This document shows, piece by piece, positions 18,340-29,606 of a stretch of DNA of 29,606 nt (position 1 is the first letter of the stretch; each line of letters begins with the position of its first letter). The translations under genes were made by a program, and so were the position numbers. Below the pieces are notes generated by a model. It searched no databases. It saw nothing but the letters and a program-made list of their open reading frames with translations, and was not told where the DNA came from. The stretch comes from a virus (Duplodnaviria > Caudoviricetes), in IMG/VR virus record IMGVR_UViG_3300034130_000053, positions 1 through 29,606 of that record; one strand, given 5' to 3'.

Positions 18340-19086
18340 TCAATTATACGCAGGCAAAATATACCGATAATTGGCATAATCCGTATCAAATTGAATCGAA
18401 AATCCACCGATATCACTAAACGCAATAACTGGATTTTTGGTTGCCGCCAATTTTAACAATTTCATCGTCTTTTTGAGGTTGAATTCGTGACTCATATCCA
18501 ATGATCCACTTACATTTTGTGCTATCAAATAACTTGCGGTATTTTGATGTTTATTGTTCTTACCAATATTAAAGGTTAAATCGCCGTTAGGTGTTAAATT
18601 AACCCAAAAATAATCCTCAGTTTTTACCAATACTTTGGCTTGTTGTAAAAAGCCAGTAATTGCAACTGTCGTCAACGGCGTCGTTGTAGTCCATTTGTTT
18701 TTGAATACAGTTTGCAATGATATCATTTCGACTGGTGTCGTTTTATAGGTGATGTTTTGTTGTGCGCTAGTAAACACAATTTCAGCCAAAATACCATTTG
18801 GATGGTAATTGTACTGCAATTTCATTGCTGGTAATTGCAACCAACCGTTTAATACATCAAGATTAATCATAGCAAACGGCGTAGCCAATTCAGGATATTT
18901 CGAGCCAAGATTGGCTTCAACCGTCATATCATGGGTATCTGCCACTGCTTCAATTTTAATATAGTCGTCGGGGGATCGGGTAAGTTTCCATTGATTAAAC
19001 TCGACCCTATTGATATTATCCATTAAGTCGCTTAACAAATCATGCACTGGATCAGTGACATTGGCAAATAATGGGTGTAATGCCAT
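18340..19086 (-). CDS. DNA sliding clamp (T4 gp45-like, large/jumbo-phage type)
   Basis: 248 aa, fitting a two-domain clamp subunit; adjacent to SSB. 'F.M.NL..L', 'GDL.F..G' and C-terminal 'I.FSD.G...I..D.....Y.YILPA' pattern recalled from clamps of Rak2-like/T4-related large phages. Confidence 0.7.
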   Translation of the reverse strand: MALHPLFANVTDPVHDLLSDLMDNINRVEFNQWKLTRSPDDYIKIEAVADTHDMTVEANLGSKYPELATPFAMINLDVLNGWLQLPAMKLQYNYHPNGILAEIVFTSAQQNITYKTTPVEMISLQTVFKNKWTTTTPLTTVAITGFLQQAKVLVKTEDYFWVNLTPNGDLTFNIGKNNKHQNTASYLIAQNVSGSLDMSHEFNLKKTMKLLKLAATKNPVIAFSDIGGFSIQFDTDYANYRYILPAYN

Positions 19087-19103
19087 ACCATAAGTCCTTT
19101 GGT

Positions 19104-19135
19104 AAAATGGATGACAGGATTAATCCTGTCATCCA
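19104..19135 (-). terminator. 28-bp perfect palindrome with short U-tract after the SSB gene
   Basis: TGGATGACAGGATT/AATCCTGTCATCCA (19108-19135), followed on the minus strand by TTTT. Confidence 0.7.
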
Positions 19136-19156
19136 CTGTTTTACACAAACTGGGTG

Positions 19157-20080
19157 TTATATAACAGCGTTTTTTGCTTTTATCTTTTCAAGAATTTGCA
19201 TTGCTTCGGTATTAGCCGTTTTCGGTGATGCCGTTACGACTGTTAGCGATGGCTTAACTTGTTCCACTGGTGTCGTTCCAATAGCTTTTTGCCCCTGTGA
19301 TGTGCCGTCATATTTCAAACCAAATGGTTTGTAGTAATTCGCCCACTTATCTGGATCGTAGGCTTGTTGATCAAGACTTTCAAGGAACATTTCATAGATG
19401 ACATTTTCCTCTTCGGGTGTCGGTTCTTTTATCAGAAAATCATTAAGATTAAACAAGCCAAATTCCTTTATAGCAGCGTGTTCAACATCATTGAGAGCCC
19501 GTTGTTTCATACTAAAATTCGACGTAGCATAACTGGCATAAGGTCCTTGAGTGGTGCGAACAATCCGAAAATCACGACCATTTGCATAATCAGTTGGTAA
19601 TTCGGTGGTTTCATCATTCAGTAAATAGCCTTTTATGATATCAAATATTTGTTGGGTAAACAACATAAGTCGTATTGGATTTGCGGGTGGGGTTTTTTCT
19701 TCAATACCACTTGAATTGACGAATGCTTGCATTTTGTAGGTTTTCTTACGCCAATACTCTTTGGCAGTTTTACGCAAGGCTTCATCATTCCAAAATGGAG
19801 CAGTGTGTTTGGCGATTTTATCTTCCTTGCCATACATATGCATACATGGCACGAGAACCTTCACTGGTTCATTTGATTGATTTTTAATACCTTGGAACGT
19901 TAAAGTTATTTTTTGTTCCTCAACAAAGAATCCATCGTTATGTTCGTTGCCATCTGGCAACAATCGAATGGTTGTTGGGGTCGAATCAGTCGCATTCCAA
20001 AATGGATAGATGCGAGTGTCCGCCGGTTTCTTGTTGGTTTTGATTAATTTGGCTCTGGCAGCCGCTAGGTTGAATACCAT
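19157..20080 (-). CDS. Single-stranded DNA-binding protein, T4 gp32 family (large/jumbo-phage type)
   Basis: 'IYPFWN', 'IRLLPDGN..N..FFVE', 'VPCM.MYG', 'YWRKK.Y', 'P.NPIR', 'LPTDY..G.DFRI..T..G.YA.Y.TS' and 'GLFNL.DFL' motifs. Confidence 0.88.
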   Translation of the reverse strand: MVFNLAAARAKLIKTNKKPADTRIYPFWNATDSTPTTIRLLPDGNEHNDGFFVEEQKITLTFQGIKNQSNEPVKVLVPCMHMYGKEDKIAKHTAPFWNDEALRKTAKEYWRKKTYKMQAFVNSSGIEEKTPPANPIRLMLFTQQIFDIIKGYLLNDETTELPTDYANGRDFRIVRTTQGPYASYATSNFSMKQRALNDVEHAAIKEFGLFNLNDFLIKEPTPEEENVIYEMFLESLDQQAYDPDKWANYYKPFGLKYDGTSQGQKAIGTTPVEQVKPSLTVVTASPKTANTEAMQILEKIKAKNAVI

Positions 20081-21040: not shown

Positions 21041-21246
21041 GACCTGTAATCCGACCTGTAATCCAGGGTGTTTTTGACTCAACTTTATTCTAGTAATCAT
21101 TTTATTTTTTTCATACGATTGAGTGATTTTACCATATGAATTACAGAATGAGTCTGTTTTACTAGAGAAACTGCGGAAAATGACCTGTAATCCGACCTGT
21201 AATCCGTGGTTTAGACCTGTAATCCGTGGGGTATGGATTACAGGTC
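21041..21246. repeat. Iteron-type replication origin candidate
   Basis: GACCTGTAATCC direct at 21041, 21053, 21182, 21194 and 21214, inverted at 21235-21246. AT-rich spacer at ~21080-21120. Directly downstream of the helicase gene. Confidence 0.85.
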
Positions 21247-25240: not shown

Positions 25241-26155
25241 TTAATTAAAAAGGCTAAACTTATGGATCTGTTCTTTCGGCACAAATATCTTATCAGCCCG
25301 ATTTAAGACATAACACCATTTGGTTCCACAGGGTTGAGGATTTCTGCCATGCGCCTGATGTCCTTTATCAAATACCACATAATCTTGATTGAGGAAGAAG
25401 TCATACATCTCGTCTGGATGAAAGCCTTTAAAATGACCCTTTAACATTTCTGCCATCACTACCGGACGACATCGTTTGATGGTATCCACTGCACCCAAGA
25501 CAACTTCAAATTCATGGCCTTCGACATCAATCTTGATGCCATCTACTAAACCAAGATTGAGACTATCGATTGTAATACCATCAACAGTAAATCGCATTCT
25601 TATGCCGTTCTTCTTAGGTCTAGCTGGAATATGCGAATTGATGACTCGCGCATTGATATAACTTTGATTTGGTGTGTCGTGGAATACTACAGGCCCAACA
25701 AAATCAAGAACAGCGACTTGATGTAACGTCACTTTGTCACTGACATCATTTAACACAAGATTATGGGCGCACATCTCGGCAATTTTAGGTACTGGTTCAA
25801 ATGCCAAGACTGTAGCACCCCATAATGCAAATTGATGGGCCATCAAACCAATATTGGCGCCGACATCCAAGATTACCCCGTTAGATCGATCAGCCAGACA
25901 TATTTTGAATGCCTGTAGATTGCCAGATTGATATGGTGATTTGGATAGTTTCAAATTCCGATGATACATCTGATTTTCGGTTTGCATCCACATCTTGGGA
26001 TTTTGTTTATTGGTGTGGATCGCAGACGCAGTCTGCGAAACACCCTGTATGGGCTTTGCCCATCCAGTCCAATCGAATTGATGCAACACCACTGGATCAG
26101 TAATAAGGGGCGGTTTGGTTTTGGCAACATTTAAATTTGGATAGCTTACTAACAT
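25241..26155 (-). CDS. FkbM-family SAM-dependent methyltransferase
   Basis: ILDVGANIG, AFEP and IKIDVEGHEFEVVLGA..TI...RPVV..E motifs. Start placed at ATG 26155, 5 nt after TAAATA. Confidence 0.9.
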   Translation of the reverse strand: MLVSYPNLNVAKTKPPLITDPVVLHQFDWTGWAKPIQGVSQTASAIHTNKQNPKMWMQTENQMYHRNLKLSKSPYQSGNLQAFKICLADRSNGVILDVGANIGLMAHQFALWGATVLAFEPVPKIAEMCAHNLVLNDVSDKVTLHQVAVLDFVGPVVFHDTPNQSYINARVINSHIPARPKKNGIRMRFTVDGITIDSLNLGLVDGIKIDVEGHEFEVVLGAVDTIKRCRPVVMAEMLKGHFKGFHPDEMYDFFLNQDYVVFDKGHQAHGRNPQPCGTKWCYVLNRADKIFVPKEQIHKFSLFN

Positions 26156-26233
26156 TGCCATATTTAACTGTAGCATAAAGCACAGGAATTCCAACCAGTG
26201 CGCCGTCAAAATGTGCCAAAAAGGCCGGATTTT

Positions 26234-26265
26234 GCGGTTGTTTTAACCCTGCGTTGTGCTACATT
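26234..26265 (+). promoter_or_regulatory. Sigma70-type (early) promoter
   Basis: GCGGTTG-N16-TGCTACATT; the same architecture recurs at 28651-28682 (+) and 28616-28585 (-). Confidence 0.6.
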
Positions 26266-26319
26266 GCTTGGGTAGCGGGCTGCTACCTGTTCTTTTACAA
26301 CCAAATAGGAAGGTATATT

Positions 26320-27039
26320 ATGCTAAAGGATAAGCATGGCTTATGGACTTTGGAGGCGGAACCAAGTGTTGTTGCCATCCTCCAGGGTGTTACTGAGGAC
26401 CATCCGCTATGGCTGCCAGTATCCACACCGGATTACCACGCATTTGCCATAAATGATGGGTTGGAAATAACCAACAAAGGCAAGGTAGTTTGGCGTGGTA
26501 TTTGTGTCGGCAAGGATCCGAATGTGAATGCTAATGCGTTAGTTGGCAATCCTTTACAGGGTGGTAGTCAACAAATGCCACAAGCTGCATTTGGTAAAAC
26601 TTTTACGGATCCAAGTGCAACGGATCCAAGTGCAACACACCGGGTTAACCAAGCAATTTGTTTTTTACCGGCAGCGTTACGGATTACCCCTTGGACCACC
26701 AATGTAATTAACTTGGGTGATTACATGTTGGATGCCAAATCCACAGATGCGCTAACAACGGATACGCGTGTAGTACCCAAAGTTGGTGCGCGTAAAAAGT
26801 TGGGGGATTTGGTTAGTTGGATAGCGGAGGAGGTAAAAACCGAACAAGGAATTAACCGGTTTATGCCGTTATGTGCTGCGGTATTGCAAAATGCCACAGT
26901 ATGGCTGCTAAAAACCAGTATAGGTTCGGATAACCTAGTAACCACAATAACATTTGGCAAAACCGATCGGAACACCAGTCCGACTGCCCAGGAAGCAAAA
27001 TGCAAGGAGATTTGGCAAGCGTTTGGTAGCCCACAGTAA
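26320..27039 (+). CDS. Hypothetical protein (239 aa), stand-alone transcription unit
   Basis: Start moved to ATG 26320 behind AGGAAGG; has its own promoter and terminator; no recognisable family. Confidence 0.8.
   Translation: MLKDKHGLWTLEAEPSVVAILQGVTEDHPLWLPVSTPDYHAFAINDGLEITNKGKVVWRGICVGKDPNVNANALVGNPLQGGSQQMPQAAFGKTFTDPSATDPSATHRVNQAICFLPAALRITPWTTNVINLGDYMLDAKSTDALTTDTRVVPKVGARKKLGDLVSWIAEEVKTEQGINRFMPLCAAVLQNATVWLLKTSIGSDNLVTTITFGKTDRNTSPTAQEAKCKEIWQAFGSPQ
26605..26636 (+). repeat. In-frame 15-bp tandem duplication (TDPSA x2)
   Basis: ACGGATCCAAGTGCA at 26605 and 26620. Confidence 0.95.
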
Positions 27040-27044
27040 AAAAC

Positions 27045-27077
27045 AAAAAACCCCAACAATAATTGTTGGGGTTTTTT
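27045..27077. terminator. Bidirectional intrinsic terminator
   Basis: AAAAAACCCCAACAAT-A-ATTGTTGGGGTTTTTT between convergent genes. Confidence 0.9.
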
Positions 27078-27200
27078 ATTATGGCGATTTCTTTCAAAAC
27101 ATCGCGTATAAGTAATAGCGCAGGATTAAATTTACTCTTTTTAGTCATACCTTTAACACGTTTCGTAGGGAGTGAGATCAGTACGGAAACGCTTTAAGGT

Positions 27201-27770
27201 TTACTGGAAGAAATACGCTAGATTAAGCACCACCAACAAACTTACAACAAAGATCAACGTCACCATATTATTGACGTGTAGTTTGTCTTCCTTTGCAATA
27301 ATGACTGCCGCATAGATATGCCGTACGGTTTCGGTATCAGCCAATTCCTCGGCAGTAACTGGCGGCGTTAGCTGGAGTGCTGCTTCAAATTGTTCGAATT
27401 GCTGTTTGGCACTGCGCAATGATGACTGTTCCAAACTACTGCGGATAATGTCAGCTTTTTGGTTACGAGTCAATTCATCCAAAGCGCGATCAATTAATGA
27501 CGTTGGCATTTTGGCTGACTGTGGATCGCAGACTTCGTCTGCGAAACACCCTGTGTGATCAACTTTGTTGATCACCCAGTTATTGAACGAGGTTCGTTCA
27601 ATATAACTGAGACCCGAACCAGGAATGCCAACCGTGGCACGCATACCATCAGCCCGAATATTGAGCATGGAACCAGGCACACCAAGACTCAAACTTGGAC
27701 CGGTTTTAGCGAGGTTTACTCGCACACCGGGCATAACCTTGAACGACCTGTGGAAGCGAAAATAGCCCAT
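27201..27770 (-). CDS. DUF4236-domain protein with C-terminal TM helix
   Basis: N-terminal 'FRF.RS.K..PGVR.N..K.G.S.S.G.PG...........T.GIPG.GLSY' signature; GAGGA RBS. Confidence 0.85.
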   Translation of the reverse strand: MGYFRFHRSFKVMPGVRVNLAKTGPSLSLGVPGSMLNIRADGMRATVGIPGSGLSYIERTSFNNWVINKVDHTGCFADEVCDPQSAKMPTSLIDRALDELTRNQKADIIRSSLEQSSLRSAKQQFEQFEAALQLTPPVTAEELADTETVRHIYAAVIIAKEDKLHVNNMVTLIFVVSLLVVLNLAYFFQ

Positions 27771-28580: not shown

Positions 28581-28688
28581 ACCCAACTTACGCTAGTTTT
28601 ATGGCTATGCAACCGCTAATGCCAAAACGGCGCGAATAAATACGAAACGAGCGGTTGTGTGCCATAAAATATATGCTATGTTGGGGTT
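28581..28688. promoter_or_regulatory. Divergent promoter pair forming an imperfect inverted repeat
   Basis: AGCGGTTG...GCCATAAAA...GTTGGG on both strands; plus-strand TAAATA at 28637-28642 lies between them. Confidence 0.6.
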
Positions 28689-28703: not shown

Positions 28704-29606
28704 ATGACTAACTCACAAGATAATGATCCGACTGCATGGATGGCAAGTTTGATCAATGACATCCAAACTGCCCGTTGCACCTATCGTGATATAACGGGTG
28801 TGCGGTATATCAAACCCGAAAACGTCGACATCACTGCTCCGGTGTTTTGGTTTGATGACATGTTCGACCAAGGTTCCCCGATCATGCGCGGTATCGAAAC
28901 CGGCAATTCACTAGCCGATTTGTATCACGAAGACGCCAGACTATTGGTATTAAACAACGACTTTCGGTTGCCATTTCCTAAATGTTTTTTCGTTTATCGG
29001 TGTTGTGAAGTAAAACCGGAAATCCGTTTGCACAAGGTCGAGAATGGTCATCATATCGCCAATATCGTTTACCTTGATCAAGATCAAACAACATTTGACA
29101 TCGAATGCACCAGTTTTATGAAGATATTGACTGGATTCACTCAAATCAAAAATTGGTTGATATGTCCGTTAAAATGGAATTTCGGTTCACATTTGCCGAA
29201 AGGCGAAATCGAATATGTGGCACGCAGTCCACTTGCTGTGGACCCATTGCGTGAAAAAGCTATGATTATTGATTTAATCGCTGACTTGACTGCAATTATG
29301 GTCGGCACCATGTTGTTAAACGAGCCAAAAGCTACCAGTGCCATTAAACTGCCGTCTGGCCCAGTGCATAGTAAAGCCAATGCGCGACGCAGTAAAGCTG
29401 GTATCAAACCATTATCGGATGTAAGTTATATTCGTTTGCTTGATCCGGTACCATATCCAAGTAGTGGTAAAAACGCCATAGCGGCACGGGGTCCTATGCC
29501 GCCGCATAATCGTCGTGGTACCACACGGCATTATAAAAGCGGTAAAGTCGTAGCAGTTGGACCAATGAAGATACGGGGTGGTGCTCCAGACAATAGTACA
29601 CACGTG
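28704..29606 (+). CDS. Hypothetical phage protein with LPF and H.RRG..R...SGK motifs (runs off window edge)
   Basis: Not in the ORF track. AGGAG RBS, ATG 28704, open for 301 codons: MTNSQDNDPTAW...FRLPFPKCFF...PPHNRRGTTRHYKSGKVVAVGPMKIRGG... Confidence 0.85.
   Translation, partial: MTNSQDNDPTAWMASLINDIQTARCTYRDITGVRYIKPENVDITAPVFWFDDMFDQGSPIMRGIETGNSLADLYHEDARLLVLNNDFRLPFPKCFFVYRCCEVKPEIRLHKVENGHHIANIVYLDQDQTTFDIECTSFMKILTGFTQIKNWLICPLKWNFGSHLPKGEIEYVARSPLAVDPLREKAMIIDLIADLTAIMVGTMLLNEPKATSAIKLPSGPVHSKANARRSKAGIKPLSDVSYIRLLDPVPYPSSGKNAIAARGPMPPHNRRGTTRHYKSGKVVAVGPMKIRGGAPDNSTHV

Follow-up and report, generated by a model that had tools for sequence, protein, structure and literature searches.

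The Stand-Alone Gene and Its Surroundings

The window, the whole stretch of 29,606 nt that was analyzed, contains a gene for a 239-aa protein (P0001; 26320–27039, plus strand) that stands alone on the strand opposite to that of the adjoining genes and shows a synonymous bias around an avoided motif. Upstream of it, a pattern search of the sequence located a predicted extended −10 box, TGTGCTACATT (26255–26265, plus strand), which is absent from the list returned by a consensus promoter scan. The predicted 5′ leader contains a GC-rich, terminator- or attenuator-like hairpin followed by a T run (26269–26296, plus strand), and the whole 60 nt leader folds no better than its shuffles (z 0.36). A purine-rich, ribosome-binding-like stretch (26306–26313, plus strand) lies upstream of the ATG. 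The gene is followed by a long inverted repeat with A/T tails (27042–27080, no strand assigned; fold z −4.2), a predicted two-way intrinsic terminator.

The divergent neighbor encodes an FkbM-family methyltransferase (25241–26161, minus strand). We place its start codon at 26161 because a predicted mirror-image extended −10 box, TATGCTACAGT (26167–26177, minus strand), sits 5 nt ahead of this probable start. The stretch is matched in a peat metagenome, perhaps its source, and a related strain occurs in a lake metagenome. Two related double-hairpin elements (26013–26066 and 27521–27582; common 38 nt core, 89% alike) are both absent from the lake strain, with the reading frame kept; the first is a 54 nt insert in the FkbM gene, and the second consists of 62 nt in place of 2 in a DUF4236 gene. 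Their appearance is that of short palindromic insertions within coding genes, and a search of viral contigs for the double-hairpin pattern gave no match.

The contig is linear, 29.6 kb long, and an estimated 58% complete, so that ~21 kb of the genome is missing; a 21 kb contig from run X1 extends ~2.6 kb beyond its right end. Its head, tail, terminase, SSB, primase, and helicase genes identify a myophage, and the structural genes and their order are like those of Ralstonia phage Raharianne (46 kb). We found no polymerase gene on the contig. The cultured relatives of its gp32-type SSB and sliding-clamp-like gene (18340–20080, minus strand) are jumbo phages: the closest cultured relatives of the SSB are phages of 346–469 kb (all of the best 25 of 94), and the sole match of the clamp-like gene is in a 349 kb Vibrio phage, near a deazaguanine gene cluster. 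The original prediction had suggested looking for the same depletion at early genes of co-occurring jumbo phages; the phage of this contig is itself a small one and not a jumbo (>200 kb), as judged from its 29.6 kb at ~58% completeness and its Raharianne-like structural genes.

Several other features of the contig were recorded. Five 19 nt repeats in two clusters (21041–21232), between the helicase gene and the next gene, are likely to mark a replication origin. An open-ended gene at 28704–29606 (plus strand) is AcrVA2-like in an Atlas feature search (0.97; 38% of the top cluster carries the family); a predicted extended −10 box similar to those above lies ahead of it at 28672, as does a mildly depleted intergenic stretch with 4 of the sites defined below versus 10.7 expected. 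Outside 26098–27085, GGGA/TCCC is strongly scarce on both strands (13 versus 43 and 9 versus 39), with a ratio of 0.35 that is below every one of 95 compared loci; it is possibly an unprotected host restriction target.

The 239-aa protein matches no family at the curated cut-offs of Pfam, PHROGs, NCBIfam, or PADLOC, and the locus matches no Rfam family at the gathering score. Its sole homologue among 5.8 billion proteins is a 99% variant from a lake metagenome that differs at 2 residues; the one other match, an acidic low-complexity protein found among 1.84 billion representatives, was discarded. A search for the gene locus in viral, metagenome, and genome contigs returned none. The single-sequence AlphaFold model has a pLDDT of 36, at which a fold search is meaningless. 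An Atlas feature search pointed to tail or hub proteins (0.96; 150/256 features), the comparison with the contig's own hub gave an E value of 0.04 with no duplicate gene, and residues 14–79 matched carboxypeptidase A2 (E 0.03), for which Pfam gives no backing. We regard both the tail or hub likeness and the carboxypeptidase match as weak leads.

A Sharply Bounded Zone Poor in GA/TC Steps

We counted GA/TC dinucleotide steps outside GGA/TCC, that is, H-G-A and T-C-D contexts on the paired strands. Between 26101 and 27060 there are 37 GA and 17 TC steps, of which 27 lie in GGA, 11 in TCC, and 16 in neither; this recount agrees with the hand count that drew attention to the region (about 16 outside GGA/TCC and about 38 within). 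The rate elsewhere predicts 88.6 such sites (P 2.8e-21). The comparison lines of 60 bp, for which 9–12 sites each had been claimed, do contain 9, 9, and 12, but they are richer than the average of 5.5 per 60 bp. In a scan, the most depleted segment was 26098–27085 (no strand assigned), with 16 sites in 988 bp and a log-likelihood ratio of 48 versus 9.9 for the runner-up; 9 sites lie beyond both exemptions when CCGA/TCGG is exempted as well as GGA/TCC. Stretches of 988 bp elsewhere on the contig contain at least 62 sites (mean 91), and the minimum among 60 simulated contigs was 58.

The borders of the zone are sharp: the 200 bp flanking each of them contain 19 and 16 sites versus 18.5 expected. 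No site occurs from 26098 to 26205, and the non-coding 158 bp of the zone contain 2 versus 14.6 expected. The GC content is raised (0.45 versus 0.40). Among 238 sequences of at least 4 kb, the strongest HGA-poor 900 bp lies in this zone (log10 P −18.4), the second being in phage iggy (−8.1). In the rest of the contig a site occurs about once per 11 bp, GA is at 0.95 of expectation, and the intergenic regions other than the zone are barely depleted (280 sites versus 304 expected). We conclude that the depletion of this 1 kb unit is a genuine, strong feature. The island had been described as exactly the promoter, gene, and terminator of the 239-aa gene; these are covered, but the zone passes 27060 through the terminator and, at its other end, probably runs into the FkbM gene. 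Given a start at 26161, the first 21 FkbM codons and the predicted FkbM promoter probably lie inside the zone, and the remainder of that gene shows no depletion.

The coding sequence (26320–27039) contains 14 sites. With the protein fixed and codons drawn from the contig's usage, 55.0 ± 5.2 are expected (z −7.9; lowest of 2000 resamples, 35), and shuffling of the gene's own codons gives 39.8 ± 3.9 (lowest 25; z −6.6). The same protein-fixed test gave z values of −2.2 to +2.3 for 30 other genes of the contig. The depletion therefore outlasts control for amino acid content, which had been named at the outset as a possible source of it, and Asp and Glu together make up an ordinary 9.6% of the protein. 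On the sense strand, HGA is reduced (10 versus 30.2 expected) and so is TCD (4 versus 24.9); because both are depleted, this is not an mRNA effect.

The loss of sites is accompanied by compensating codon choice. GGA is gained in the coding sequence (23 versus 12.0 expected), and 17 of the 23 sense-strand occurrences lie at Asp/Glu codon junctions, the Gly codon GGA being used once. A G-ending codon precedes 17 of the 23 Asp/Glu codons, compared with 43 of the 215 other codons of the gene (p 3e-7) and 111 of 863 in other genes; just 1 of the 23 comes after a residue lacking any G-ending codon. Serine is encoded mostly by AGT (AGT 7, TCC 2, AGC 1, TCG 1), and Phe by TTT in 7 of 7 cases. The codon work-arounds that had been proposed for Asp/Glu and Ser are thus present in the gene. 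Because GGA rises in absolute terms, and does so at Asp/Glu junctions, these data indicate selection rather than erosion, and the two-strand loss together with compensating codon choice argues for selection on double-stranded DNA. Removal of the sites is incomplete, as the protein dictates only 2 and the other 12 of the 14 present are avoidable in principle. When contig codon usage is combined with a motif penalty, 13 other short words fall within |z| 2.3, which makes the gene look native but for this rule.

Word counts in the zone define the context further. GGA/TCC occurs 38 times versus 21–22 expected. All 7 of the remaining CGA words are CCGA, for which 5.9 are expected, and no other CGA is found (0 versus 19.7 expected); CCGA/TCGG is a second spared context beside GGA/TCC. 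It may be only partly free, as a model that leaves CCGA wholly free gives ~12 (z −2.1). The avoided set comprises TCA, TCT, and TCG followed by A, C, or T, independent of the −2 base: TCA and TCT are depleted alike (together 9 versus 65.5 expected), and TNTCC is present at 8 versus 5.8 expected. GATC is not avoided (4 versus 4.5 expected), GANTC is too rare to judge, and for 6 bp palindromes containing GA the sparing from avoidance is not significant (p 0.23). We rejected AT and ATAT as extra avoided words, since the protein together with the main rule explains their losses, and we rejected avoidance of UV dimers, as TT and CT are at normal levels.

Candidate Explanations for the Depleted Zone

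We put the chances at about even that the zone is a start-up unit from which a context-specific base mark of the phage itself is kept away. We infer in this case a writer, a marked base (G, T, C, or A), a reader, and an early role for the gene. A post-replicative base modification at H-G-A/T-C-D sites, encoded in the missing ~40% of the genome, would chemically mark these sites in packaged DNA, and the mark would hinder the host's RNA polymerase or some other reader of the host. Marked sites would then be selected against across the promoter, gene, and terminator, the mostly unmarked unit would be readable at the start of infection, and the 239-aa product would be an early factor that enables use of the remaining marked genome. 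A graded cost fits the counts, for example a bulky mark that slows a polymerase. Killing by a nuclease or toxin at a single site misfits, because the target occurs every ~11 bp and 9–16 copies are left in the zone. The proposal that the unit must avoid a DNA mark is partly supported: in its favor are the depletion after control for amino acids and on both strands, the lack of a matching genome-wide bias among 158 loci, and a GA-poor region of like depth in iggy. Of the agents named with it, DarT is not supported, and DpdA in the form known from iggy and CAjan does not fit as it stands (see below).

Phage writers of GA (DpdA) and of TC (5mYOX97; available part of PMC13229309) exist, and we count this in favor of an own mark. 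Against it stand the barely depleted intergenic regions elsewhere, the lack of genome-wide GA under-use, the palindrome result, the incomplete purge, a weak control in phage CAjan and none for GA in PaMx11, the mostly non-coding nature of the iggy region, the action of known writers on GGA/TCC as well, and the failure to find a writer. No DNA-modifying enzyme was recognized among the 32 contig proteins (Pfam, PHROGs), and tblastn of the contig with 12 modification-cluster proteins of iggy, CAjan, and PaMx11 gave no match. On this 58%-complete contig, there was accordingly no match to the DpdA proteins of iggy and CAjan or to PaMx11 gp46–gp51 (the dU hydroxymethylase, 5-HMUDK, and transferase set of the 5-hmdU-based thymidine hypermodification of M6, ViI, and PaMx11), and no folE, queD, queE, queC, or C5 methylase was found. 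QueC was found in 0 of 20 capsid relatives and 0 of 15 SSB/FkbM relatives, all of which are distant and mostly fragments. Tet_JBP (PF12851) was not found in the contig or 20 relatives in a search that had no positive control and matched no control genome. We did not count FkbM as part of a writer: the genes around its relatives form clusters of sugar enzymes or mixed neighborhoods (4 annotated loci of 80), and clusters of this kind have been assigned to surface polysaccharide (PMC7824862). Searches with the terminase, SSB, primase, helicase, clamp, and hairpin pattern yielded no close relatives.

A less probable account is that the unit is an imported cassette: a different phage, marking these sites or biased against them, would have shaped it, and the bias would be a relic here. 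The unit stands alone, opposite to its neighbors, and has a higher GC content, and 12 of the 14 coding sites could in principle have been avoided. Over the zone, the lake strain shows 4 differences in 1013 bp, versus 32 in 276 bp and 8 in 321 bp in adjoining pieces; however, another piece of that strain is as close as the zone (4 differences in 655 bp), and the three differences listed for the zone create no site and abolish one. In a 118 bp contig from peat (run X1), a minor variant, the FkbM 5′ end is joined to other upstream sequence with one added site. Because of this other sequence, the unit may move as a cassette, which also weighs against an own mark; we take the contig as a weak sign that the unit varies here. 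A donor with a matching genome-wide bias, which had been raised as an alternative, was not found among 158 loci compared: the lowest whole-locus HGA ratio was 0.78, and the lowest of 3742 1 kb windows was 0.48, versus 0.17 in the zone. The remaining word use matches the codon usage of this phage, and import would shift the cause to another genome, where it would still be needed.

We give a similarly low probability to a foreign writer or reader, belonging to a co-infecting or helper phage or to the host, to which this unit alone would be exposed until the phage can counter it. The jumbo-phage relatives of the SSB and of the clamp-like gene, the latter near a deazaguanine cluster, are in keeping with such a partner, as is the motif avoidance confined to a leading region that is known for type I restriction (available part of PMC12455610). 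However, the phage encodes a head and a tail of its own, and a three-base target that recurs every ~11 bp and is still present 9–16 times would give no protection against a nuclease or toxin; a DarT-type motif also differs from the avoided set. The distant capsid, FkbM, and SSB loci contain no comparable island. In the 80 SSB-relative loci, where the two best windows are Gly-rich genes, no island of this kind was seen.

A cytosine deaminase directed at TC that eroded the zone by mutation (TC to TT, both strands), without selection, is a very improbable cause: it would account for the TC context on both strands and for the exclusive use of TTT for Phe, but it cannot lift GGA in the coding sequence (23 versus 12.0) or put G-ending codons before Asp/Glu, and the zone has a higher GC content and retains its Asp and Glu. 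Chance, amino acid composition, or an mRNA-level constraint can be dismissed even though the zone was chosen post hoc and Gly-rich genes can mimic the pattern, as none of 2000 resamples or 60 simulated contigs comes near the observed counts and both strands and the non-coding 158 bp are depleted.

The zone is a new form of motif avoidance. Our more specific suggestion is less likely than not: that the zone is the footprint of an undescribed modification at GA/TC except GGA and CCGA, and that the orphan 239-aa protein is a new kind of start-up factor, placed in unmodifiable DNA, through which the host machinery can read the modified genome. If this is true, such islands would reveal directly from sequence which motif a phage modifies and which of its genes acts first, and if marked phages keep start-up genes target-free, the missing words would give the specificity of the enzyme without chemistry. 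The reason for post-replicative, motif-limited marks in phages has been called a mystery (available part of PMC13229309). Sequence alone is enough to keep a motif-limited mark away from chosen genes, which bears on that question.

Comparison with Known Systems

DarT, one of the agents named by the original prediction, ADP-ribosylates thymidine at TNTC or TCT motifs. The target contains TC, as does the avoided set; however, TNTCC is not avoided in the zone (8 versus 5.8 expected), TCA is lost like TCT, and the avoided words are independent of the −2 base. These counts argue against DarT as the agent.

We also examined four phages: iggy and CAjan, which modify GA; PaMx11, which modifies thymidine; and Raharianne, which has no known mark. 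In the available passages of PMC10484667, 97% of GA sites in iggy are modified, and its DpdA acts on nearly all GA; the CAjan DpdA targets GA, including GGA, plus GGC (available part of PMC7544227). The core step, GA/TC, is thus common to these dPreQ0 phages and the zone. In iggy (MN029011.1), positions 59959–60586, which lie between divergent genes and are mostly non-coding, contain 11 GA/TC versus 61 expected, a depth of loss like that in the zone (16 versus 89). The best composition-controlled 900 bp window of iggy wraps the record end (27 versus 87; log10 P −13.3), and the best other dinucleotide falls far behind GA (log10 P −5.9). The passages of PMC10484667 available to us make no mention of this region. 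The large intergenic region of CAjan contains 17 GA/TC versus 36 and is not that phage's top window, and PaMx11 and Raharianne have nothing comparable for GA, so a clear GA-poor island is present in 1 of the 2 GA-modifying phages. GA is under-used genome-wide in iggy (0.79) and CAjan (0.87), versus 0.95 outside the zone here. Two further stretches were observed in this comparison. The dinucleotide AT is absent over ~500 bp near an intergenic region of PaMx11 (NC_028770.1, 27900–28405). In a complete 105 kb phage (L060, 6800–8050), GA/TC including GGA is halved (60 versus 134) in a repeat-rich, non-coding stretch, where repeats inflate the signal.

The differences from iggy and CAjan lie in GGA and in the extent of the island. 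The iggy region loses GGA as well (5 versus 19), as expected from its enzyme, which also modifies GGA, whereas the zone gains it; this gain to 38 versus 21–22 expected argues against a DpdA of the iggy/CAjan type as the agent, and the contig yielded neither DpdA nor Que genes. The zone also includes a whole coding gene, whereas the iggy region is mostly non-coding.

Avoidance limited to one functional part of a genome has been described for Murciavirus, in which Mme2I restriction sites are avoided in the first-injected region (available part of PMC12455610). That system resembles the zone in its confinement but concerns a long host site that must be absent; the zone has a 3–4 base context that is ~five-fold less frequent, with codon work-arounds. 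In the available parts of PMC5889632, PMC8989533, PMC11780129, PMC10710427, and 10.1101/2023.12.21.572611, no matching context is described, and a literature search that covered few subscription papers returned nothing on gene islands that lack the motif of the modification made by the same phage.

The closest likeness on the TC side is to the thymine dioxygenase 5mYOX97, which in the available part of PMC13229309 is ParB-independent and post-replicative and prefers T in NTC; enzymes of this type often adjoin glycosyl- and methyltransferases. Its TTC test oligo reads TCC (PMC13229309, Table S1), so its substrate context includes TCC, which the zone spares; a later enzyme of the 5mYOX type could narrow the NTC context. 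The zone behaves like the DpdA and 5mYOX97 systems, but we do not count it among them because neither spares the contexts that the zone spares. The rule that spares GGA and CCGA matches none of the GA or TC writers compared, and a new specificity is predicted because the known GA and TC writers also act on GGA/TCC.
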